Part shown: positions 28,814-38,516 of the stretch, one piece after another | How positions within the stretch are numbered: the stretch's first letter is position 1 | Layout of the letters: each line of letters opens with the position of its first letter | From: Myxococcota bacterium | Lineage (GTDB): Bacteria > Myxococcota_A > UBA9160 > PR03 | Assembly: GCA_041611735.1 (NCBI GenBank) | Contig: JBFIML010000042.1 | Span: forward strand, 1-40,058 | Direction: 5' to 3' | DNA: 40,058 nt | Made by a program: the position numbers and the translations under genes | The notes under the pieces: model-generated | Seen by the model: only the letters and a program-made list of their open reading frames with translations | The model's database searches: none | Told to the model about the DNA's origin: nothing

Positions 28814-30448
28814 CTAGAAGGGGAGGTCCTCCTGCTCCGGCGGCTCGCCCGGCTCGCCGCGCAGGCGCCGGAACAGCTCGGCGATGGGAATCCGCGGCGC
28901 GCGCCATACAGAATTCCGGCTCGACCAGACCGGGCTCGTCCCGAACGGGTCGCCCATGGCCAGGGTGCGCGGGACGCGGTCGTCGAAGATCGCATCCCAT
29001 CTGCAGCGGTAGTGCTGGCGCTCCGGCTGGAGCCGCCGGATCCACGCGCCGCGCGCGGCCGCCCGGCCTCCGGCCGGCGGGTCGGTGACGGCGCTGGGCA
29101 CGTCGCCGATCCCGTCCACACGGTGCGCCAGCGCGCCGCCGGCGTCGAGCACCTCGAAGAGCCCCCGGGCGCCCAGCTCGCCGAAGCGCACGTCGGCCTC
29201 GAGCAGCTCCGCGCGCAGGGCGAGGAAATCGTCCAGGCGCTCCCAGGAGAGCCCGTGTTGGCCCATGTGGCGCTCCAGCTTCTCCACAGCGTCGATCACG
29301 GGTCCAAGCGGCTCGCGCAGCCGTGCACGCAGGGAGTCGCGGATTCCCACCCGGGTGCCAAGGCGCGCCGCCGCCTTCAGCCGGCGCAGCACGTGGGTCC
29401 AGGCGGGGAGCGATTCCCAGGCAACCCCGCGCCGCGCGGTGCGCCGCCGGAAGACGGCCAGCTTGATCGCCCAGTCGAGACGGTCGCTGAGCGAGCTCGG
29501 GTCCTCCTCGAGCTGGTCGAGCACCTGCCGCCAGGCCCGGCAGACGGCCTCGGCCCACGCCGGTAGCATGCGATGCCCGAGCTGCGCCTCGGCCGCCTGC
29601 AGGTAGTGCCTCTGGATCTCCACCGCCGTGCGCAGCGAGCCGTCGCGCCCGGCGGCGCGCCGCCGGCAGGTCGGATCGCCCGCGAAGGCCTGCAGGGCGT
29701 GGATCGGGCTGCGCAGGGCCACGGCATCGCCGCGGCAGACGCCCTGCTCGATCAGGCGGACCACCAGCGCGGTCGCGCCGAGCTTGAGAAAGGCGCCAAG
29801 CTGGGAGAACTGGCTCTCGCCCGCGATCACGTGGAGGCGGTGGTAGCCGCCTGCGCAGAGGGGCTCGTCCTTGCTGTGGTAGAGGGCGCGCTCGTGGGTC
29901 GAGCACGCGCCCACCTCCCGCCGCAGGTGAGCGGCCCGCGGCGAGAGCCGGAACAGCAGGCCGATCTTGGTGTTGTCGAAGCCACCCGCCCCCGTGTAGA
30001 CGATCCGCGACGCCAGGTGGGGGATCAGCTCCGGGGCCATCCGCGCCGGATCGCTGCGGTAGAGGTACGACTCGTGACAGCCCCAGGTCGCCCCGCTGGC
30101 GTAGTCCACGTTGTTCCGGAACAGCTGGACCCGGTCCGCCCCGGCGCGCTCCTTCAGCTCGCAGGCCGCGGCGAGCAGGATGCGCTCCCCGGCCAGCGTG
30201 TAGCGCACCACCTCCCGGGGATCGCTGCACTCGGGAGTGCTCAGCTCCGGGTGCCCCGCGTCGGCGTAGAGCCGCGACCCATTGGCCAGGAACAGGCCCG
30301 GTTCCACCCCGAACAGATGCGGATGGCGCTCGCCAGCGATCTGAACCAGCGCGTCGGCATCCGTGGAGGCGCAGCGCCGGCCCGCGCGTCCGAAGACGGC
30401 GAAGCCGTACTCGGTCTCCAGTCCGAACAGCAGGTCCGCCAGGTTCAC
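28814..30448 (-). CDS. pafA: Pup-protein ligase-like protein (PafA/Dop family)
   Basis: GLETEYG, FLANGSRLYADAGHPELSTPEC, NNVD...WGCHESY, RLHVIAGES, LKLGATAL, LDWAIK, C-terminal W...DPF. Lacks the Dop-loop. GTG start overlaps the pup stop. Confidence 0.85.
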   Translation of the reverse strand: MNLADLLFGLETEYGFAVFGRAGRRCASTDADALVQIAGERHPHLFGVEPGLFLANGSRLYADAGHPELSTPECSDPREVVRYTLAGERILLAAACELKERAGADRVQLFRNNVDYASGATWGCHESYLYRSDPARMAPELIPHLASRIVYTGAGGFDNTKIGLLFRLSPRAAHLRREVGACSTHERALYHSKDEPLCAGGYHRLHVIAGESQFSQLGAFLKLGATALVVRLIEQGVCRGDAVALRSPIHALQAFAGDPTCRRRAAGRDGSLRTAVEIQRHYLQAAEAQLGHRMLPAWAEAVCRAWRQVLDQLEEDPSSLSDRLDWAIKLAVFRRRTARRGVAWESLPAWTHVLRRLKAAARLGTRVGIRDSLRARLREPLGPVIDAVEKLERHMGQHGLSWERLDDFLALRAELLEADVRFGELGARGLFEVLDAGGALAHRVDGIGDVPSAVTDPPAGGRAAARGAWIRRLQPERQHYRCRWDAIFDDRVPRTLAMGDPFGTSPVWSSRNSVWRAPRIPIAELFRRLRGEPGEPPEQEDLPF

Positions 30449-30642
30449 TGCCCTCCGGTCTGGAGCAGGTCCCGCAGGAAGCGCTCGCTGTCTCCGGATT
30501 GGAAGCGGTCGATCGCTTCGTCGGAGACGGAGAGCAGGCGCTCCGCCCGCCGCCGCTGCTCCTCGCTCCGCGCCCGCCCGTCGCCCGGGCCCTCGGACGC
30601 CGGGCGTGCCTCGGGCTCCCGGGTTCGCTCATGCCGACTCAT
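30445..30642 (-). CDS. pup: Pup-like small protein modifier (65 aa) ending QTGGQ
   Basis: ATG at 30642 after GAGGAGGAG. Charged, low-complexity N-terminus; C-terminus SERFLRDLLQTGGQ resembles Pup's FVRAYVQKGGQ. Sits between the dop-like and pafA-like genes. Confidence 0.88.
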   Translation of the reverse strand: MSRHERTREPEARPASEGPGDGRARSEEQRRRAERLLSVSDEAIDRFQSGDSERFLRDLLQTGGQ

Positions 30643-32242
30643 GACTCTCCTCCTCTTCGTCGTCCTCGCCCAGCGGCGACAGCATCGCCCCGGGGTCGGC
30701 CGATCCTTCGAAGACTCCCGCGTTCTCGGTGCGCGTCGCGCCGAGCGGGTCGGGCAGGCGGGCGGCCAGGCGCAGGGAGCGGCCCTCGCCGTCCGCCAGC
30801 CGGAACACCACCCCGTCCCAGTCCACGTGCTCCACCTCGTCCGCGGCGCGCAACAGCATGGCCCGCGTCCAGGCGCGAGTGTCCTCGGGGGGCTCGTGGA
30901 CGCGATGCTCGATCTCGTCGTCGCCGACCAGGCGCTCCACCACGCCCGCGCGCTCGTAGGCCCAGTAGAGGCCCAGCTCCGGGTCCACGTGGGCGTAGAG
31001 GTGGTCCAGGTGCTTGAGGCCGGGCGCACGCCAGTCCAGCTCGGGTCGGCGCGCCCGCGCCCGCTCGAGCGCCCGGAGCTTCAGCACCCAGTCGAGGCGA
31101 CTGGCGAGTGCGTCCAGATCCGCGTCGCGCAGCCGGAGCAGCGTGTCCTCCCAGGCATCGAGCAGCGCGTCTGCCTCCGGCACGCCCGCCAGCCCGCCCG
31201 CCGCATGGGCGTGGCGCGCTGCCTCCAGAAAGCCGAGCTGCAGCTCGACCGCGGTCGGGTTGCCCCCGAGCAGCAGGCGTGCCCGTGCCCGCAGCGTCGG
31301 GTCGCAGCTCCAGCGGCGGAGCGCCCCGAGCGGGTCCTCCAAGACCAGGCGCGGTTCCACGGCGTCCAGCTCGAGCATCGCCAGCACGATCTGCATGACG
31401 CCGACCTTGAGCCAGCTCGCCACGTGACACAGGGTGCTGTCGTAGAAGATGCAGTGGAGGCGGGCGTAGCCGGTGCCCGGGGCGCGGGTGGGCGGGCCGC
31501 ACAGGGGCTCGTCGCGGGAGTTCACCAGCGGGCGCCGGAAGGTCGTCTGCGGTCCGCACAGGGTCTCGAAGAAGTCGGCGCGCTGGCTGATCTGGTACGG
31601 CACCCAGGGCACCCCGTTCTCGGCGCCCACCTTGCCCTGCCCCGCGAAGACGATGCTCGAGACCTGGTAGGAGGCCAGGAACGCCAGATAGTGCGGGCGC
31701 CGCTCGAAGAGGTTGCCCCACGCGGTGCGCGTCAGCAGGAAGTTGAGGTGGCTGCCGAAGGAGTTCGAGTGCCCATCCGAGTTGTTGACGAGCAGCTCGA
31801 TCCGCTCGCCGGCGGGGAGCCGGGCGTTGGCGCGGATCCGCGCCTGGCGCGCGATCCGGATCATCGCGTGGGTGGCCACCAGGTGGTCGCGGGCGCTGCG
31901 CACCTCGGGCACGCACAGCTCGAGGTGGTCCAAGTCCACGTAGACGCAGCCGCCATTGGAGGCCAGGAACTTCCGGCCCCAATCCTGGGGGTCCTCGCCC
32001 TCCGCGGTGTATCCGGCCCTGCGCAGCGTGCCCCCTGCCAGGCGGATCGCGCGCCGCACGGGACGGACCCCGTCCACCTCGCGCAGCAGCAGCCGGGCGG
32101 CCTCGGCGCCCGTCCCTCCCGGACGTCGACGCCCCTCGACGAAGTTGGCCAGCTCGAAGTCGCCTCCGCACAGCTTGGGCAGCTGGTGCACCGGGGCGTC
32201 AGTCTCGACTTCTCGCACGCTGCCTACCTCTCCCGGCCGCAC
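30629..32242 (-). CDS. dop: Pup deamidase/depupylase-like protein (Dop/PafA2)
   Basis: CGGDFE, long Dop-loop-like insert, NGGCVYVDLDHLE, NNSDG...FGSH, QISQRADFF...TTFRRPLVNSRDEP, LDWVLK, WRAPGLKHLD..Y, PPEDTRA, WDGVVF. Alternative GTG start at 32218. Confidence 0.83.
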   Translation of the reverse strand: MRPGEVGSVREVETDAPVHQLPKLCGGDFELANFVEGRRRPGGTGAEAARLLLREVDGVRPVRRAIRLAGGTLRRAGYTAEGEDPQDWGRKFLASNGGCVYVDLDHLELCVPEVRSARDHLVATHAMIRIARQARIRANARLPAGERIELLVNNSDGHSNSFGSHLNFLLTRTAWGNLFERRPHYLAFLASYQVSSIVFAGQGKVGAENGVPWVPYQISQRADFFETLCGPQTTFRRPLVNSRDEPLCGPPTRAPGTGYARLHCIFYDSTLCHVASWLKVGVMQIVLAMLELDAVEPRLVLEDPLGALRRWSCDPTLRARARLLLGGNPTAVELQLGFLEAARHAHAAGGLAGVPEADALLDAWEDTLLRLRDADLDALASRLDWVLKLRALERARARRPELDWRAPGLKHLDHLYAHVDPELGLYWAYERAGVVERLVGDDEIEHRVHEPPEDTRAWTRAMLLRAADEVEHVDWDGVVFRLADGEGRSLRLAARLPDPLGATRTENAGVFEGSADPGAMLSPLGEDDEEEESHESA

Positions 32243-33916
32243 TCACGCGGCCTCGACGTAACGGTGGGCGCGCCGCAGGCGCGACGAGTCGCGCTCCACG
32301 CGCACCACGTCCACGTCGTCGGGCAGATCGTCCAGATGGGCGCGCACGTTGCGCACCGTCAGCGTCGAGCGCAGCCGCTCGATCGCGTCGTCCACGCCGT
32401 CGAGGACGTCCTCCACCCGCAGCCCCGCCGTGTCGCCGCGCTCGTCGTGGCTGGCGAAGGCACGTTCCCTGGCGTGCAGGCAGATCTGCTGGATGACCCG
32501 CCCGCTCATCAGGTCGCGCGCCCGCACCGGGCGCGTGCGGCCGTCGCGCAGGTGCAGCGTGCCCAGACCACTGTCCCCGTTGGGGGAGTAGAGGCGGGTG
32601 AGCGCCGCCTCCACCAGCTCCCCGCGCGTCGCGTCGGGGGCGTAGGGGAGCTCTCGACCCAGGTGCACCTCGAAGATGCCGCGCGCCTCGCGGCGATCGG
32701 GCCGGCCGATGGCGATCTCCACGTCGCAGATGCGGCTCAGGAAGGCGGGATCGAGCAGGTCCTTGCGGTTGGTGGCCGCGATCAGCGCCACGTCACCGCG
32801 CTCGGCGAAGCCATCGATCTCGGCCAGCAGCGCGGCGAGGAACTTGTCGGACAGGTGCGCAGCGGGTCCTCCGCGAACGCGCGCGACCGCCTCCACCTCG
32901 TCGAGGAAGAGGATCGCCGGGGCGCCGTCGCCGGCCGCCCGCCGCAGGGCCGCGAAGCACTCGCGGATGCGCGCCTCGGTCTCGCCGACCCAGGGGCTCT
33001 CGAACTCGCCCGGCCGCACCACCGCGAAGTGGCAGGGGCGACCGCTGGCTCGCCGGATCTGCGCGGCAGCGACCCGGGCGCGCAGCGTCTTTCCGCAGCC
33101 CGGTGGACCGTGCAGGAGGATGCTGCGGCGTCCCGCGAGCCCGTAGCGCCCGGCCCGCTCGGGGGCGAGCAGGCGGCCGGTCAGGACTTCGTGCAGCCGC
33201 CGCAGGGAGTCGCCGCCGCCGCCCACCGCTTCGAGCGGCAGGTCCGGGACCTGCTCGACCCGGAAGCCGCCGGTCTCGGCCGGTTGGATGCGCTCCAGGG
33301 CCAGGCGGGCGGCGCGATCGACCAGCAGGCGGTCGCCCGGGCGCAGCGCCTCCGGTTCGAGCGTGGCGGCGGCGTCCACCAGCCACTCCTCGTCGCGCCA
33401 GCGGACCGTGAGTCGCCCGTCCGCGGCGAGCCGCTCGAACAGCACGGTGTCGCCCAGCCCCCGGGGCGGCTCGCCGTCGCGCGCCACGATCAGCGCAAGC
33501 GCGTCGTTGAGGAAGACGGCGTCTCCCGGGCGCAGTGCGTCGGCCTCCAGCCCCGGGGCCAGCTTGACGACGCGCGGCCCGTTCGCCGCCTGCACCAGCG
33601 CGCGTCCCTCGGCAGCGGGCTCGACCCGCCGCAGCATGCGCGCCGGGTGCCAGGGCGGGGCGCAGATCTCCTCCACCAGCGCCCGCAGCTCCCGCTGCGC
33701 GCCCTCGAGCCGCAGCAACGTCCTGCGCTGGGCGTGCAGCCGCTCGAGCAGGCGCCGGTCCAGCTCGGCTCCCAACTCGCGCGAGCGGTTGCGCAGCGTG
33801 CTCAGGTGGGTCAGCACGTCGCCCAGCAGGGCGGGGTCGCGGTCCATGGCCGCGACGAGGTCGTCGATCTCCTGGGCTGCGGGATGGCGGGGGCGCATGG
33901 GACCTCCGGAAGTCAC
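32243..33916 (-). CDS. arc: ARC/Mpa-type proteasomal AAA+ ATPase
   Basis: N-terminal coiled coil, then two OB-like segments (LRPGDAVFLNDAL; LRPGDRLLVD...ALERI). VPDLPLEAVGG, GPPGCGKT, pore loop WVGETE, FLDE, ATNRKDLLDPAF. Alternative ATG at 33898. Confidence 0.88.
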   Translation of the reverse strand: MTSGGPMRPRHPAAQEIDDLVAAMDRDPALLGDVLTHLSTLRNRSRELGAELDRRLLERLHAQRRTLLRLEGAQRELRALVEEICAPPWHPARMLRRVEPAAEGRALVQAANGPRVVKLAPGLEADALRPGDAVFLNDALALIVARDGEPPRGLGDTVLFERLAADGRLTVRWRDEEWLVDAAATLEPEALRPGDRLLVDRAARLALERIQPAETGGFRVEQVPDLPLEAVGGGGDSLRRLHEVLTGRLLAPERAGRYGLAGRRSILLHGPPGCGKTLRARVAAAQIRRASGRPCHFAVVRPGEFESPWVGETEARIRECFAALRRAAGDGAPAILFLDEVEAVARVRGGPAAHLSDKFLAALLAEIDGFAERGDVALIAATNRKDLLDPAFLSRICDVEIAIGRPDRREARGIFEVHLGRELPYAPDATRGELVEAALTRLYSPNGDSGLGTLHLRDGRTRPVRARDLMSGRVIQQICLHARERAFASHDERGDTAGLRVEDVLDGVDDAIERLRSTLTVRNVRAHLDDLPDDVDVVRVERDSSRLRRAHRYVEAA

Positions 33917-34956
33917 GCCGCGACGGGCTCCGGCGCCGCGGGGGTTTCGAGCCGGTGGAAGCCCCGCTCGACGAGCAGGCCCGCGCGCCAGCCGTACAGG
34001 GTGGTGAGCAGCTCGCCCGCGCCCCGATCGGTGACCAGCAGCGCCACCTGGTACGGGGCCGGGAAGCAGGCGCGCTGGAGCAGGCGGTCCTCCTGGCTGA
34101 GGAAGGGGCCGCGCAGCGCGCAGCGCGGGCGCCGCGCCGGCGGGCAGCGGCGGCAGAAGTGCGGGTGGTGGTGCTCGAAGCCGACCATCAGCTCGCCGGC
34201 GCCGCGGCGCTCGACCGCACGACGCGCGTCGGCCCAGGCCTCCGGCGTGAAGGTGAAGCTGGCCGAGGTGGCCTCGGTGTGGCGGGTGAGCACCAGGGCG
34301 GTGATCTCGAGGAACACGTCGGCCGGCACCGCCGAGCGGTGCAGCCTGCCCAGCAGCACGCCGCCCGTCTCGACCTCGGGCGACAGGCGCGCCATGTCGA
34401 GCGCCTGCTCCAGCACCGCGGCGTGCACGAAGACCGGGTGGTCGCCGGGGTCGGGAGCGGCGGCCGCCGTGGAGCGGGTCAGGAAGCCGTCGAGCGAGCC
34501 GGAGACCAGCGGGAGCGGGCGTCGCTCCTCCGCGAACTGGAGGCCCGCCGCGCCGGCGGCGGGCGGCTCCGGCGCGTCACTGGGGAAGGCGCAGACGCGG
34601 TAGCGATAGCGCTCGCCCGCCTCGAGAGCGCCGGACTCGACCAGCAGCGACGAGCCCGCCTCGGCCAGCGGGCGGAAGAAGGCCGGCGACACCTCCGCCG
34701 CGAGCGAGGCACCCGCGGGCCGCGCGCGCGGCTCGATGCGAACGCCCGCCAACCAGGGCGGTCCGTCGCGGGGGTCCCACAGCGGGACGACGTCGGAGCC
34801 CTCGCCCGGCACCACCGCAGGCAGCGCGCCGCGGCGGATGCCCTGGAACTCGGCCCAGGCGCAGGCCGGCTCGAAGTCCGGCTCCACCGCGATCGCGCCG
34901 AGGGCGCGGCCGTCGAGGGCCGAGTAGCGGATGGTGTAGCGGTAGGGGGGGCTCAT
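33913..34956 (-). CDS. JAB/MPN+ metallo-isopeptidase with an N-terminal extension
   Basis: ETGGVLLG (catalytic Glu), GFEHHHP (HxH) and FLSQED (SxxD), with a CRRC...C insert between HxH and SxxD. Confidence 0.85.
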   Translation of the reverse strand: MSPPYRYTIRYSALDGRALGAIAVEPDFEPACAWAEFQGIRRGALPAVVPGEGSDVVPLWDPRDGPPWLAGVRIEPRARPAGASLAAEVSPAFFRPLAEAGSSLLVESGALEAGERYRYRVCAFPSDAPEPPAAGAAGLQFAEERRPLPLVSGSLDGFLTRSTAAAAPDPGDHPVFVHAAVLEQALDMARLSPEVETGGVLLGRLHRSAVPADVFLEITALVLTRHTEATSASFTFTPEAWADARRAVERRGAGELMVGFEHHHPHFCRRCPPARRPRCALRGPFLSQEDRLLQRACFPAPYQVALLVTDRGAGELLTTLYGWRAGLLVERGFHRLETPAAPEPVAA

Positions 34957-34966
34957 GGATCCTCGA

Positions 34967-35000
34967 GCCGGATCCCCGGCCCGGGGGCCGGGGATCCGGC
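34967..35000. repeat. Perfect 16-bp inverted repeat (stem-loop) between ubl and jab
   Basis: GCCGGATCCCCGGCCC-GG-GGGCCGGGGATCCGGC. No U-tract on the minus strand. Confidence 0.9.
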
Positions 35001-35005
35001 GGGCG

Positions 35006-35281
35006 TCAGCCAGCCATGATGTGGGGCGAGATCGTCATCTCGTCGCCGCTTGCGAGGGTGTCACCCACCAGCTCCGAGGCGTGCAGGTGGCGCCCCTCGC
35101 GCTCGAGACGCGCGCGGTAGCTCATGGGCCTTCCTTCGGTGTCCGCCGACACGAGCCCCATGCGCGCGACCGCGTCGCTCAACAGCTCGGCGATGGTCCA
35201 CTCGCGCGGTACCCGTGAGATGCGCACGCGCTTCTGGCCGGTGACGTCCAGGGCCCAGAGGTCGAGAGTCTTTTCGGACAT
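35006..35281 (-). CDS. Ubiquitin-like (beta-grasp) protein, 91 aa, ending in Gly
   Basis: ATG at 35281 after GGGAG. Pattern of two strands, helix (TIAELLSDAVARMGL), strand, GRHL, LASGDEMTI, C-terminal IMAG. Neighbours are E1, E2 and JAB genes. Confidence 0.8.
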   Translation of the reverse strand: MSEKTLDLWALDVTGQKRVRISRVPREWTIAELLSDAVARMGLVSADTEGRPMSYRARLEREGRHLHASELVGDTLASGDEMTISPHIMAG

Positions 35282-35298
35282 GGCTTGGGGGTCTCCCT

Positions 35299-36222
35299 TC
35301 AAAGGGCGCTCGGGCCGGTCTCCTTGACCGGTCCGGGCGCACGGTGGTTCTCGCGCCGCCTCACTCGCGGCATCGGGCCGAGCAGTGCGAGGTAGGCGCG
35401 CGCCAGCGCCTCGTCGCCGGCCAGCGCCGCGACCTCGCGGGCACAGTGCCGGGCCGCGATCGACAGCGCCGCGAGCGCGTGGTGCAGCTCGCGCGGCGCA
35501 GCGCCGCGGCCGGTCACCGCCTCCAGCCCCACCTGGACCCTGCCGTCGCTCTCGCCGGCCGTGGCGCGCACGAGGCGGAAGGCCCCGCTCGCCCGCAGCA
35601 GCATCTCGCCCAGGGCGCGGCGACAGGCACGCGAGGGGGACTCCACCGCGCACAGCGCGACGTGCCAGCGGGTCCCCCCGCCGACATCGCGCTCGCCGCA
35701 GGCGGCCAGCACCGCGTGCGGCACCTCGAGCCGCACCCGAGGGGCGGCACCAAGCTCGCAGGGCCAGTCCGTCTCGCGCAGGGCATCGCCCAGCGACTCG
35801 TCGTCGGGTCCGGCATCTGGTGCCGCCGCCCGCGTCATGCGCCCGCCGCCGCCCAGAGCGAGCGCGGCGGCGTCGGCGAGACCGGCGCGGATCTCCGCCA
35901 GGCGCTCCTCGAACGGGCAGTCCGCGTCGAGGGGCAGCTCCGCACAGGCGTGGAGCAGAGGTGCCCGCCCCCGCAGCGCGAGCCTCGCGCCCCCCGCGAA
36001 GCCCGCGTTGGCGCCCAGCAGCGACCAGGGCGACTCGCGCCGGCCGCCGAGGGCCAGGGCGAAGAGCAGGAAGCCGTCGGCCGTGCGGGCCGTCCCCGAC
36101 GCCACCCGACGGCGGCCGACCGGCACGGCGATGCGCCAGCGCGCCCCGCCCTCCGGGGTCCCGCCGAGCAGGCGCTCGACGGCGGGCCCCGCCACCGCGG
36201 CGTACGGGCTGCATGCGATCAT
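35299..36222 (-). CDS. Hypothetical protein (307 aa), possibly tandem YbjN/T3SS-chaperone-like domains
   Basis: ATG overlaps the E2 stop (ATGA). Fills the gap in the operon. Two similar segments: PWSLLGANAGFAGGARL and GEMLLRASGAFRLVRA. Fold call is inference. Confidence 0.65.
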   Translation of the reverse strand: MIACSPYAAVAGPAVERLLGGTPEGGARWRIAVPVGRRRVASGTARTADGFLLFALALGGRRESPWSLLGANAGFAGGARLALRGRAPLLHACAELPLDADCPFEERLAEIRAGLADAAALALGGGGRMTRAAAPDAGPDDESLGDALRETDWPCELGAAPRVRLEVPHAVLAACGERDVGGGTRWHVALCAVESPSRACRRALGEMLLRASGAFRLVRATAGESDGRVQVGLEAVTGRGAAPRELHHALAALSIAARHCAREVAALAGDEALARAYLALLGPMPRVRRRENHRAPGPVKETGPSAL

Positions 36223-36713
36223 CGCGGGGCCTCGCAAGCGGAGCGGCCCTTCAGGGGACGCCGGTCCACGGGCAGGCGCTGCGGGTGATTGCGCGCCCAC
36301 TGGCACGCGGCGCGGTTCAGGGCGTCGTCGTCCCGGACCGTGAGGGCCTGGAAGGTGAGGACCTCGTAGACCCGGTAGATCAGCTCGACCAGCGGTGTGC
36401 CTGGCGCCACGGCACCCAGGCAGATCAGGTGCTCGTACACGTTGGGATGGAACACGTGGCGGGGCTCCAGCAGCGTGATCAGCTGCGCGGCCTCGACCCG
36501 GCGCAGGTAGTCGTCGCCGAGCCAGAAGCCCACCGTGAAGCCCTCGGTGGCGCGGGGCTGGCCACCCGGGTCCGCCACCAGGGTGCTGGCCACGAACCTG
36601 GCCACGAAGCGCTCCGCGTCGAGCCGCAGCACCTGGAGGATGGGCGACCGGGCCGCCAGGGCCGCGGCCTGGCGGTGCTGGGTGTCGCGAAAGCTCTCCA
36701 GGATGGTGTCCAT
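36219..36713 (-). CDS. Ubiquitin-conjugating enzyme E2-like protein
   Basis: VFHPNVYEHLICLG (HPN motif plus Cys98) and a C-terminal DDALNRAACQW matching the E2 'PLN.EAA' helix. RBS GGAG. Confidence 0.85.
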   Translation of the reverse strand: MDTILESFRDTQHRQAAALAARSPILQVLRLDAERFVARFVASTLVADPGGQPRATEGFTVGFWLGDDYLRRVEAAQLITLLEPRHVFHPNVYEHLICLGAVAPGTPLVELIYRVYEVLTFQALTVRDDDALNRAACQWARNHPQRLPVDRRPLKGRSACEAPR

Positions 36714-36722
36714 GGTTTCTCC

Positions 36723-37826
36723 TCAGGCAACCGCCGCATCGGCGGAGGGCGGCAGGCCTTCCGCGCAGGGCAGGCGCTGCTCCAGCAGCTCGTAGTCGCG
36801 CGTACCCCAGGCGCACTCGAGGCACGCGACGGACTCGTCCGGCAGCACCGCCGTGACCCGCGTGAGCAGGTCGCCCGCATCGATGGCGGCGTCGAACAGC
36901 GGGACGCCCAGGCGGAAGGCGATCTCGTTGGCGCGCTGGCGCGCGCCGCGATTGTCCAGGCAGCTCACCAGCGCCGTGCCGCGGAACTGCCCCCAGGGCA
37001 CCGCCTCGAGCCGCGCCACCTGCGGATGCACCTCGAGGCGCGGCTCGATGCGCCGCATGCGCTCGGCCTGGACCAGGGCCTTGGGGCGGCCCAGGTCACC
37101 CGGCTCGATGGCCTGCCCGGCGAGATTCCCGGGCTCGTAGCCGTCGAAGTCCACCAGGATCGCGCGCCGCAGCCAGCCGCTGCGAGCGAGGGTGGCGCAC
37201 AGATGGGAGCCGATCGCGCCGCAGCCGAGCACCGCCACGCCGGCGCCGCAGCGCGCGGGCGCGTCGGGCAGCTCCAGGTGGACGGGCCCTCCCGCGCCGT
37301 GCAGCGTGACCACGTCGCCCGGAGCCAGCCCCAGCTTCGCCAGCGGGAGGTCGCAGCGCGCCGCGAGCATCTGCGTGGCGAGATGCGGGTGTAGCTCGAA
37401 GCCGCGCACGGCCAGCAACGCGCCGCAGCCCCGGCAGGTGCGGTCGCCGGCGGAGAGGCGCGCAAGCGGTCGCCAGAGCGCGTTCACCGCTCCGCACGCG
37501 GGGCAGCGCAGCTCGCCCACGAAGACGTGACCCGGCAAGGACGCCGTCACGTCGCCGCCTGCCTCGGCCTCGGCGAGGAGCTCGCCGACGCAGCGGGCCG
37601 TCGCCGTGCGGATGCGCATCCGGCGGTGATCGAACCGGCAGTGCGGATTGCGCGGGATGCGGGTCACCAGCTGCCGGTGGCCGCCGAGCTCGCGCATGCG
37701 CTCGAAGCCCACACCGGCGCGCCCGAAGTCACTGGCGTCGAGGGCCGTCAGGGCCAGCGCGAGCTCCGCCGCAGCCAGCTCCGCGAGCGCGGCCGGAGCC
37801 CGGGTCGGGGCGACGGGGGGCATCAT
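36723..37826 (-). CDS. ThiF/E1-like activating enzyme, apparently circularly permuted
   Basis: The adenylation core (GCGAIG, VDFD, NLAGQ, GRPK, CLDNRGAR, CLEC, LPC) is C-terminal. The normally C-terminal part (PT..PA helix, RNPHCRFDH, CPAC/CRGC, LAKLGLAPGDVV) is N-terminal. ATG at 37826 after GGAGGAG. Confidence 0.85.
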   Translation of the reverse strand: MMPPVAPTRAPAALAELAAAELALALTALDASDFGRAGVGFERMRELGGHRQLVTRIPRNPHCRFDHRRMRIRTATARCVGELLAEAEAGGDVTASLPGHVFVGELRCPACGAVNALWRPLARLSAGDRTCRGCGALLAVRGFELHPHLATQMLAARCDLPLAKLGLAPGDVVTLHGAGGPVHLELPDAPARCGAGVAVLGCGAIGSHLCATLARSGWLRRAILVDFDGYEPGNLAGQAIEPGDLGRPKALVQAERMRRIEPRLEVHPQVARLEAVPWGQFRGTALVSCLDNRGARQRANEIAFRLGVPLFDAAIDAGDLLTRVTAVLPDESVACLECAWGTRDYELLEQRLPCAEGLPPSADAAVA

Positions 37827-38341
37827 GCCGGCTCCTCCGGCACCCAGCGCAGGCCGTCCCCGAGCGCGCTCGGCGCGCCGCACGCGGCACAGGGACCGTA
37901 CGAGAAGCACGCCAGCGCCTCGCTCTCGTGGAGCCACACGCCGCAGGCCGGGCAGCAGACGGCCGTGTCGCCCGCCACGATCGGCCGGGTGCAGCGCGGG
38001 CAGGGCGGGGCGTCGCCACGCGGGAAGGGCTCCATGCGCGCGGTGCGCTCTGCCGAAACCACGTAGCGGACACCGTCAGGTAGGTCGACCTCATCGCGGT
38101 CTGCCAGGGCGGCGATGCCCGTGGCGAGCGGGGCGCCATTCAGGCGCACGCCGCTGCCGGGTGCTGCCAGCAGGAACCAGCCGGCGCGGTCGCCCTCCCC
38201 CCGGGCGAGCAACGGCCCGGCCCGCGCCGTCCCGTCCGGCGGCTCGAGGCGCGCCCCGGCGCTCCCTGCCCGCAGGGCGTAGCGGCTTCCTGCCAGGCGC
38301 CGCGGCTCCCAGAACCCGTTCGAGCGTACGAAGCAGCGCAC
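37823..38341 (-). CDS. FHA-like domain plus prokaryotic RING-like zinc finger (putative E3)
   Basis: GTG at 38341 after GGAGGGAG. VRLNGAPL..GIAALADRDEV resembles an FHA C-terminal half. C4HC3 pattern CPRC...CPAC-x4-H-x6-C-x5-CAAC. Confidence 0.75.
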   Translation of the reverse strand: MRCFVRSNGFWEPRRLAGSRYALRAGSAGARLEPPDGTARAGPLLARGEGDRAGWFLLAAPGSGVRLNGAPLATGIAALADRDEVDLPDGVRYVVSAERTARMEPFPRGDAPPCPRCTRPIVAGDTAVCCPACGVWLHESEALACFSYGPCAACGAPSALGDGLRWVPEEPA

Positions 38342-38374
38342 CGGGCTCCCTCCCCACCCGCCGGCAGCCGACCG

Positions 38375-38516
38375 GCAGTTGCACCGCCACAATGCGTCAG
38401 ATATGTAGGTTGGAGTGCGCTGCGTCAAACACAGCGCCACAACGCAAACTGTGGCGAGAAAACTGTTTTCTCCGTCACAAAACGGCGTTTGAGGGACTGA
38501 CCGTTCGCGCCACAAT
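38375..38516. promoter_or_regulatory. Divergent promoter region with repeated or palindromic operator-like sites
   Basis: CGCCACAA at 38385, 38435 and 38508, with variant CGTCACAA at 38473. Palindromes CGCCACA-N8-TGTGGCG (38435-38456) and GAGAAAAC-T-GTTTTCTC (38456-38472). Weak sigma-54-like TGGC-N8-TGC on the minus strand at 38389-38375. Confidence 0.6.

Follow-up and report, generated by a model that had tools for sequence, protein, structure and literature searches.

The window analysed here is the whole 40,058-base contig JBFIML010000042.1 (C42) from a metagenome-assembled genome of a Myxococcota bacterium (GCA_041611735.1; 4.09 Mb in 118 contigs, approximately 74% G+C). Its minus strand encodes, second in a series of about ten co-directional, tightly spaced genes (28814–38515), a ubiquitin-activating-type enzyme (E1) of 367 residues, the two modules of which stand in the reverse of the usual order. 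The reversed order recurs among relatives, the residues invariant in the family are retained, the protein is modelled with confidence as a single body, and the gene belongs to a recurrent operon. The gene is very probably a genuine and conserved circular permutant of a bacterial E1, opened shortly behind the cysteine of its crossover loop. Its open reading frame (ORF) extends over 36723–37937, encoding 404 residues from a GTG codon, with the 367-residue form beginning at an ATG at 37826. The shorter form is supported by the four-base overlap of this ATG with the stop codon of the upstream gene (ATGA), by the sequence GGAGGA preceding it, and by alignments of homologues, which start at residues 3–7 of the 367-residue form. 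The identical 367-residue protein (P0001) is recorded on 75 contigs.

The N-terminal half of the protein contains the motifs PTRAPA (residues 7–12), RNPHCRFDH (59–67), CPAC (108–111), CRGC (131–134) and LAKLGLAPGDVV (162–173). The C-terminal half contains GCGAIG (201–206), VDFD (225–228), NLAGQ (234–238), GRPK (246–249), DNRGAR (291–296), CLEC (335–338) and RLPC (351–354). Every motif named in a first-pass annotation, made from the sequence alone, was found where that annotation had placed it. The Pfam family ThiF (PF00899) matches residues 197–352 at a score far above chance, through profile positions 23–177 of 238 (E = 1.2e-21; 77.4 bits against a cut-off of 28.1). On this match, the adenylation domain begins approximately 195 residues into the chain, as had been read from its motifs, and it lacks the last 60 profile positions at its C-terminal end. 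Only 13 residues follow Cys354, as had also been noted, because the stop codon comes after residue 367. The colinear order of PF00899, in which the Rossmann part is followed by CxxC, the crossover loop, a helix and the second zinc half, is thereby broken, the last third of the domain preceding the first two-thirds.

Aligned separately, the two halves match homologues in reversed order, which is the arrangement that the first-pass annotation had proposed. Residues 8–186 align to residues 182–363 of the normal-order relative P0002 (E = 1e-23), such that the N-terminal approximately 190 residues do correspond to the C-terminal half of relatives. Residues 197–367 (7–177 of the half used as query) align to residues 15–186 of the same protein (E = 2e-49). 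A word-indexed search returned 12 relatives of 329–438 residues (E = 5e-24 to 6e-58), and in all 12 the ThiF part comes first, followed by a conserved ‘PC’, the T.AP helix, RNPxCRxDH, a CxxC...CxxC finger and an LG..GDV...HFEL end. As the features following the ‘PC’ in these relatives are those of the N terminus of the window E1, its halves match those of the homologues in reversed order. The same relationship extends to Escherichia coli MoeB (1jw9_B). The profile of the permuted subfamily matches MoeB residues 29–175 through positions 198–344 (E = 3.2e-17), and matches MoeB residues 198–245, a stretch ending on RNPGC, through positions 16–64 (10.1 bits; conditional E = 1.3e-5), in agreement with the strong alignment within the family. 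RNPHCRFDH is aligned in this way with the RNPGC of MoeB, and Cys63 and His67 are invariant along with Cys335 and Cys338, consistent with its proposed role as the second half of the zinc site. On sequence grounds, the first 60 residues make up the final third of the adenylation domain, including this second zinc-site half, and the cut lies in the crossover loop. As in circular permutants, both segments are homologous to those of relatives in swapped order, the old termini are joined, and the new termini lie in the former loop.

HMMER, run exhaustively against 1.84 billion cluster representatives, yielded 399 relatives at E ≤ 1e-30. The best 150 of the 399, together with the relatives from the word search, made up the 160 family proteins examined, comprising 136 in the normal order, 21 in the swapped order of the window E1 and 3 in which the ThiF half alone is matched. 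The permuted order recurs in 20 other representatives of 50%-identity clusters. A cysteine is located within 6 residues of the Cys354 position in all 157 two-module proteins (136 of 136 in the normal order and 21 of 21 permuted). In normal-order relatives, this cysteine precedes the T.AP helix by a median of 9 residues, the median C-terminal tail being 8 residues long and the median N-terminal lead 16. The 21 permuted proteins end a median of 13 residues (3–77) after the cysteine and start a median of 7 residues (1–120) before the T.AP helix, and the description of the window E1 as cut just after its conserved cysteine thus extends to all of them. The linker connecting the end of the C-terminal ubiquitin-fold domain (UFD)-like module to the GxGxxG loop has a median length of 17 residues (13–34) in the permuted proteins and measures 14 residues in the window E1, which fits a fusion of the old termini.

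Residues Gly201, Gly203, Gly206, Asp226, Lys249, Asp291, Arg296, Cys335, Cys338, Cys63, His67, Cys108, Cys131 and Cys134 are invariant in the 21-row alignment of permuted proteins, and Cys354 itself is kept in at least 90% of the rows. The motifs of PF00899 are represented by the GxGxxG loop, the ribose-binding Asp226, the phosphate-binding Lys249 and the DxxxxR Mg/ATP motif formed by Asp291 and Arg296. The arginine of the NLxRQ motif is absent, its position being occupied by Gly237 (codon 37116–37118) within NLAGQ. This replacement had been recorded in the first-pass annotation in the context of the permutation. The replacement stands and the link does not: family-wide, the position is occupied by serine in 55 proteins, glycine in 53 and threonine in 17, and by arginine in only 2 of the 149 in which the motif could be located (11 of 160 have no such motif found). 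The missing arginine is therefore a trait of the family as a whole and unrelated to the permutation.

An AlphaFold2 model of the window E1, computed from the 21-row alignment, reached a predicted local distance difference test score (pLDDT) of 89.5 and a predicted template modelling score (pTM) of 0.88, with only residues 1–3 and 352–367 below a pLDDT of 50. The permuted E1 is modelled as a single compact body with a disordered Cys354 tail. Residues 8–67 are modelled as a helix (12–30) and two strands (41–46 and 51–56), with pLDDT values above 85. Foldseek and VIA searches with the full model see only the Rossmann half, owing to the order dependence of these aligners; the best Foldseek match is ThiF (1zud; E = 7.3e-9), over approximately 150 columns. 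For the Rossmann half, VIA returned UBA5 (6h77, Z 15.1), MoeB (Z 14.9), BubCD of Citrobacter (9ea5, Z 14.9), Cap2 (Z 13.2) and the bacterial E1 of 8tyz (Z 12.3). Modelled alone from 28 rows, residues 68–190 reached a pLDDT of 93.9. The top seven VIA matches of this model are the E2-binding UFDs of the SUMO and NEDD8 E1s (Z 7.5–6.0; 69–77 residues; root mean square deviation 2.4–2.8), followed by zinc-ribbon regions of MCM proteins, which cover residues 34–81 of the model, and by generic ubiquitin-like folds at Z ~4. The models thus give moderate support to the assignment of residues 68–186 as a UFD-like domain with an inserted zinc ribbon, in line with the zinc finger and UFD-like end first recognized from the motifs. 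This domain is internal in the permuted E1 and C-terminal in the normal-order relatives.

The distribution of the E1 is sporadic. Among 61 genomes of the same order, a full-length colinear match is present in three (the window’s own, G012 and G053; 37–40% identity), and three further genomes match only in the Rossmann part (33–36% identity). The genes downstream of the E1 in G012 and G053 are the same as in the window. No second, normal-order copy was found in the genome that contains the window, its only other match being a weak ThiF-type protein on contig C24 (E = 1.6e-5), and none of 200 other genomes sampled from the phylum contains the E1 at E ≤ 1e-15. Such a sporadic distribution is typical of mobile operons.

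In a tree of the ThiF half (160 rows, FastTree), the permuted label requires 4 changes, compared with a mean of 19.9 for shuffled labels, and 0 of 500 shuffles were as low. When both modules are used (157 rows, IQ-TREE quick), one clade (SH-aLRT 98) unites 20 of the 21 permuted proteins, and in a reduced tree of 67 rows, consisting of the 21 permuted proteins and every third normal-order row (46 of 136), all 21 lie on one side of a branch with support 85. The rows of these trees were joined module envelopes in which columns adjacent to the junction were retained, which could favour grouping of the permuted rows. The permuted forms cluster on these trees, and a single origin is likely and compatible with the data without being proven by them. 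The most likely origin would be a tandem duplication of the E1 gene in place, followed by in-frame fusion and loss of the outer halves; permuted and normal loci share their flanking genes. In the permuted proteins, a short linker joins the old C and N termini and the chain is opened 3–77 residues after the crossover-loop cysteine, so that a different start and end delimit the same fold.

The operon encodes, in order, a RING/PHD-like finger protein, the E1, a conjugating enzyme (E2), a protein of no known family, a ubiquitin-like protein (Ubl), a JAB peptidase, an Mpa-like ATPase and two Dop/PafA homologues flanking a Pup-like ORF (Table 1).

Table 1 Modules of the permuted E1 and genes of its operon, in window coordinates.
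Feature	Coordinates	Strand	Description
Permuted E1 gene	36723..37826	-	367 aa + stop; from ORF list, Pfam and motif positions
E1 residues 8–67	37626..37805	-	Predicted last third of adenylation domain, at the N terminus: T.AP helix, two strands, C63/H67 zinc half
E1 residues 68–186	37269..37625	-	UFD-like beta-grasp domain (predicted) with inserted CxxC...CxxC zinc ribbon (C108, C111, C131, C134)
E1 residues 187–196	37239..37268	-	Linker between former C terminus and former N terminus
E1 residues 197–353	36768..37238	-	Rossmann part of adenylation domain: GCGAIG, D226, K249, D291, R296, CLEC 335–338
E1 Cys354 (36765–36767) and 13-residue free C-terminal tail	36726..36767	-	Opened crossover loop
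Cys-rich C4HC3-type finger gene (RING/PHD-like)	37823..38515	-	Candidate E3; directly upstream of E1
E2-like (UBC-type)	36219..36713	-	164 aa; HPN + Cys98; nearest Atlas clusters UBC core, 0.96
Conserved protein of unknown family	35299..36225	-	~308 aa, start uncertain; between E2 and Ubl
Ubiquitin-like protein	35006..35275	-	89 aa, ends ...IMAG; conserved P.I.AG C terminus
JAB/JAMM-type peptidase candidate	33913..34956	-	347 aa; Prok-JAB E 5.3e-4, 20.3 bits, below cut-off 25; conserved in operon
Mpa/ARC-like proteasomal AAA ATPase	32243..33916	-	557 aa; AAA + both proteasomal ATPase OB domains (Pfam)
Dop/PafA homologue 1	30629..32242	-	537 aa; Pup_ligase E 5.5e-89; below both equivalog cut-offs
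Pup-like small ORF	30445..30642	-	Ends GGQ; between Dop/PafA homologues; no Pfam match
Dop/PafA homologue 2	28814..30448	-	544 aa; Pup_ligase E 1.8e-91

Permuted and normal loci do not differ in their flanking genes. Of 54 loci, 37 contain the complete set of six core downstream genes, and the remaining 17 are mostly truncated by contig ends. In three normal-order loci (L019, L048 and L051), part or all of the usual gene set is missing from the 7–10 kb downstream, and the operon is therefore not invariant. The loci span Planctomycetota, Acidobacteriota, Verrucomicrobiota, Gemmatimonadota, Armatimonadota and other phyla. Neither PADLOC nor NCBIfam assigned a family above its cut-off to any protein of the operon.

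In 52 of 54 loci the finger gene immediately precedes that of the E1, and its true start is probably well inside the ORF. The finger is defined by an invariant CxxC...CxxC...H...C...CxxC pattern and is preceded by a conserved region of unknown fold. It has no Pfam match and is only weakly similar to the TAF3 PHD finger (E = 0.0032, the best match), the EL5 RING (0.11) and the Arkadia RING (0.45); a role as the ligase (E3) of the system is possible. Pro90 and Cys98 of the E2 are invariant in a 45-row alignment, and His89 and Asn91 are kept in at least 90% of rows; the protein has no Pfam match. The approximately 308-residue product of the gene that separates the E2 from the Ubl could be recognized in 32 of 54 loci and matches no Pfam, NCBIfam or PADLOC family, with Atlas giving weak leads to YbjN/CesT-type chaperones (0.83–0.84, below 0.9). 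Of 44 Ubl family members, 15, including that of the window, stop exactly at the AG, and most others carry 1–10 extra residues, as expected from their sequences for precursors trimmed by a JAB peptidase. The Pfam match of the JAB candidate is confined to residues 179–266 of 347, and its N-terminal approximately 170 residues belong to no family.

The second part of the operon resembles a pupylation system. The Mpa-like ATPase scores 244.7 bits with the NCBIfam profile pup_AAA, below its cut-off of 504.75. In 34 of 37 loci, the two ligase homologues are separated by a small ORF that ends in GGQ (28 loci) or GGE (6 loci) and shares the conserved end ...A.D.AI.R.LS.DS..FL...RQ.GG[QE]; the stop codon of the window ORF overlaps the start of the next gene. 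Judged by this conserved end, the GGQ ORF looks like a Pup homologue. Elsewhere in the genome, two adjacent genes of the proteasome family (PF00227) are located at G000:C10:49367-50668 (L062 and L064), with a third match on contig C40. The genome may therefore encode a 20S-type protease outside the operon, in which none is present.

The arrangement of the operon suggests a conjugation pathway in which the E1 would adenylate the C-terminal glycine of the 89-residue Ubl, form a Ubl thioester on Cys354 and transfer the Ubl to Cys98 of the neighbouring E2, for which the UFD-like domain would serve as docking site. The finger protein would then ligate the Ubl and the JAB peptidase would remove or process it. 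As the crossover loop is no longer closed, Cys354 would be carried on a flexible C-terminal arm able to reach both the adenylation site and the E2. The opened loop may affect Ubl transfer to the E2, as had been proposed in the first-pass annotation, or its rate or specificity. Of the features of a cysteine-dependent E1, a conserved cysteine at or near the crossover position (157 of 157), a nearby E2 with HPN and cysteine, and a Ubl ending in glycine are present, and the UFD-like domain is a putative E2-binding domain. A predicted E1–E2 complex scored 0.77, compared with 0.00 for the best control, with runs agreeing in at least 64% of contacts and partner pLDDT values of at least 86; the mark used is reached by 58 of 80 solved complexes and by 2 of 110 mismatched pairs. 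The predicted interface comprises E1 residues 64–65, 99–101, 139–147, 294–297, 337–348 and 350–354, and E2 residues 62–82 and 91–104, the latter including Cys98. The model sets the Cys354 tail and the UFD-like domain against the Cys98 region of the E2, which supports, and does not show, binding.

The complex bears on a different account of the tail, in which the thioester step has been lost and the permuted E1 only adenylates, with the E2 or some other nucleophile attacking the Ubl-adenylate directly, or acts as a scaffold, the cysteine serving some other role. The absence of the NLxRQ arginine and the position of Cys354 in a segment with pLDDT below 50 would fit such a loss, as would the related bacterial Bub systems, which work without an E1 cysteine (10.1101/2024.11.21.623953). 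The cysteine is, however, kept in all 157 two-module members, whether permuted or not, the E2 keeps its HPN motif and Cys98, and the predicted complex brings E1 residues 350–354 to E2 residues 91–104. Loss of the step accordingly seems improbable, although it is the strongest of the rivals considered.

Slightly less probable again is a domain swap, in which residues 8–67 would complete the Rossmann half of another chain and activity would require an intertwined dimer. Permutants whose ends lie in a former loop generally tend towards swapping, and MoeB, ThiF, UBA5 and BubCD are homodimers (in part after 10.1101/2024.11.21.623953). The AlphaFold2 model of the single chain is nevertheless confident as one body (pTM 0.88), and the 14-residue linker would be long enough for packing in cis.

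The continuity of the gene was examined in contigs assembled separately from individual sequencing runs (Logan). The contigs of runs X1 (a 3,220-base record) and X4 (12,132 bases) contain 36400–38200 in one piece with 0 differences, and that of run X5, from another study, contains 37068–38200 in one piece; run X6 has only short pieces of 90–99% likeness. These contigs thus span both the junction near 37257 and the start at 37826, and the chimeric junction that the first-pass annotation had named as a danger at about 37250–37270 did not materialize. No RNA datasets carrying the locus were found among the runs listed. An assembly or binning chimera, in which two fragments of normal E1s (from one or two copies) were joined in the wrong order, might be suspected in a genome of 118 contigs with the gene 2.2 kb from a contig end and with runs that may be source samples, but is very unlikely and was rejected, since the order is shared by 20 other cluster representatives and by G012 and G053 (37–40% identity, same neighbours and operon), per-run assemblies bridge the junction with 0 differences, both gene ends adjoin conserved neighbours with the ATGA overlap, and the genome has no second copy.

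Several observations weigh against the interpretation of the gene as a permuted, cysteine-dependent E1 of single origin. The second MoeB stretch is weak when taken alone (10.1 bits; independent E = 2.4). The permuted protein P0037 falls outside the 20-member clade of the 157-row tree; no duplication intermediates or fused long forms were found among proteins of 644–2000 residues at E ≤ 1e-10, which is weak evidence, and none of the 160 proteins examined contains two copies of a module. The VIA Z score of 7.5 for the UFD-like domain lies in the range that the tool calls middling, and Foldseek returned nothing significant for residues 68–190 (best E = 0.13), its first row being again the UFD of Uba2. 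The zinc geometry of Cys335, Cys338, Cys63 and His67 and the packing of residues 8–67 are derived from homology and from global model confidence. The pass of the complex model may reflect likeness to solved complexes, as E1–E2 is a textbook pair. Adenylation, thioester formation and zinc binding are predicted functions of the permuted E1, and, as the family lacks the NLxRQ arginine, its ATP chemistry or phosphate binding may differ from that of MoeB, ThiF and textbook E1s. Runs X1–X5 may include source samples and are not independent, for which reason the evolutionary evidence outweighs that from the runs.

The closest counterparts of the window E1 are its normal-order relatives (for example, P0002; loci L010–L061), which have the same two modules at 36–45% identity, occur in the same operon and share the invariant residues, including the crossover-loop cysteine and both zinc sites. 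In these relatives the loop after the cysteine is closed, with a median of 9 residues to the T.AP helix, whereas in the window E1 it is open and the modules are swapped. MoeB and ThiF (1jw9 and 1zud) share the adenylation fold, the first CxxC and the RNPxC zinc half. They differ in having the normal order, in lacking a UFD-like domain and in serving sulfur-carrier chemistry instead of an E2 cascade, and they keep the NLxRQ arginine that is missing from the family of the window E1, as seen for ThiF in its alignment. The eukaryotic UBA3 and UBA2 (of the NEDD8 and SUMO E1s) likewise combine an adenylation domain with a UFD that recruits the E2, and are the best structural matches of residues 68–190. 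They function as heterodimers and have a separate cysteine domain inserted in the crossover loop. In the window E1, by contrast, the cysteine is a residue of the loop, which is cut, and the UFD-like domain carries a zinc ribbon.

Caldiarchaeum-type operons and the prokaryotic RING systems of Burroughs et al. 2011 reportedly combine E1, E2, RING, Ub and JAB components. The operon of the window resembles these systems in its compact eukaryote-like set of finger protein, E1, E2, Ubl and JAB. Complete operons of the E1/E2/RING/Ub/JAB type occur sporadically in bacteria (PMC5654768); in the portions of that report compared, no permuted E1 and no association with Pup genes is described.

The Bub, Cap2 and 8tyz systems are bacterial E1/E2/Ubl/JAB-type conjugation systems like that of the window, and their E1s superpose on its Rossmann half. 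According to the Bub study, the crossover loop is mobile and moves from the adenylation site to the E2 and back, the E1s lack a cysteine and are fused to JAB or E2, and the operons carry DUF6527 (10.1101/2024.11.21.623953). DUF6527 matched none of the 8 operon proteins scanned with Pfam. The window E1 is not a Bub enzyme, because its cysteine is present, its E1, E2 and JAB are encoded by separate genes and no DUF6527 was found. Cap2 is an E2–E1 fusion, in contrast to the separate E1 gene of the window. The Cap2 profile of NCBIfam (6A-MBL cap2_3) gives 51.1 bits against a cut-off of 320, and the E1–E2 profiles of PADLOC match only approximately 80 Rossmann residues; with such partial profile matches, the window E1 is not a Cap2 enzyme. 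The separate Ubl, E2, JAB and E1 genes of Bil operons (BilA–D) agree with the gene content of the operon in the window. The 8tyz E1 (8tyz_A), at Z 12.3, ranks below MoeB and UBA5 and is absent from the sequence matches. None of the Bub, Cap2 and Bil-type E1s is called permuted in the portions of the descriptions compared.

No description of a permuted E1, nor of an operon joining Pup genes to E1, E2 and JAB genes, was found among the papers listed by full-text searches; supplementary operon tables, such as Table S1 of the Bil and Bub papers and Additional file 1 of Iyer 2008, may already list such loci. Pup and PafA without proteasome genes nearby have been reported in planctomycetes and deltaproteobacteria (Iyer 2008; PMC2588565), and the main text of that report makes no mention of JAB or E1-like proteins. 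In the E1s described so far, according to the Bub study, the reactive residue lies in a closed crossover loop or in an inserted domain, and the loop clamps the Ubl tail (10.1101/2024.11.21.623953).

Against this background, the window E1 and its relatives show clearly how a catalytic domain can be circularly permuted while its gene neighbourhood stays the same. A conserved lineage that keeps the cysteine with the loop opened is a natural test of whether adenylation, thioester formation and the hand-off to the E2 depend on a closed loop, with the normal-order relatives in the same type of operon as built-in controls. A more specific and distinctly tentative possibility is that the permuted clade is a natural experiment in which a cut-open loop dispenses with Ubl threading and lets a swinging cysteine tail reach the E2, in the service of a two-tag operon that would feed Ubl- and Pup-tagged proteins to one unfoldase. 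The combination of beta-grasp Ubl tagging and Pup tagging beside a proteasomal-type ATPase bears, in turn, on how tagging relates to regulated unfolding and degradation.

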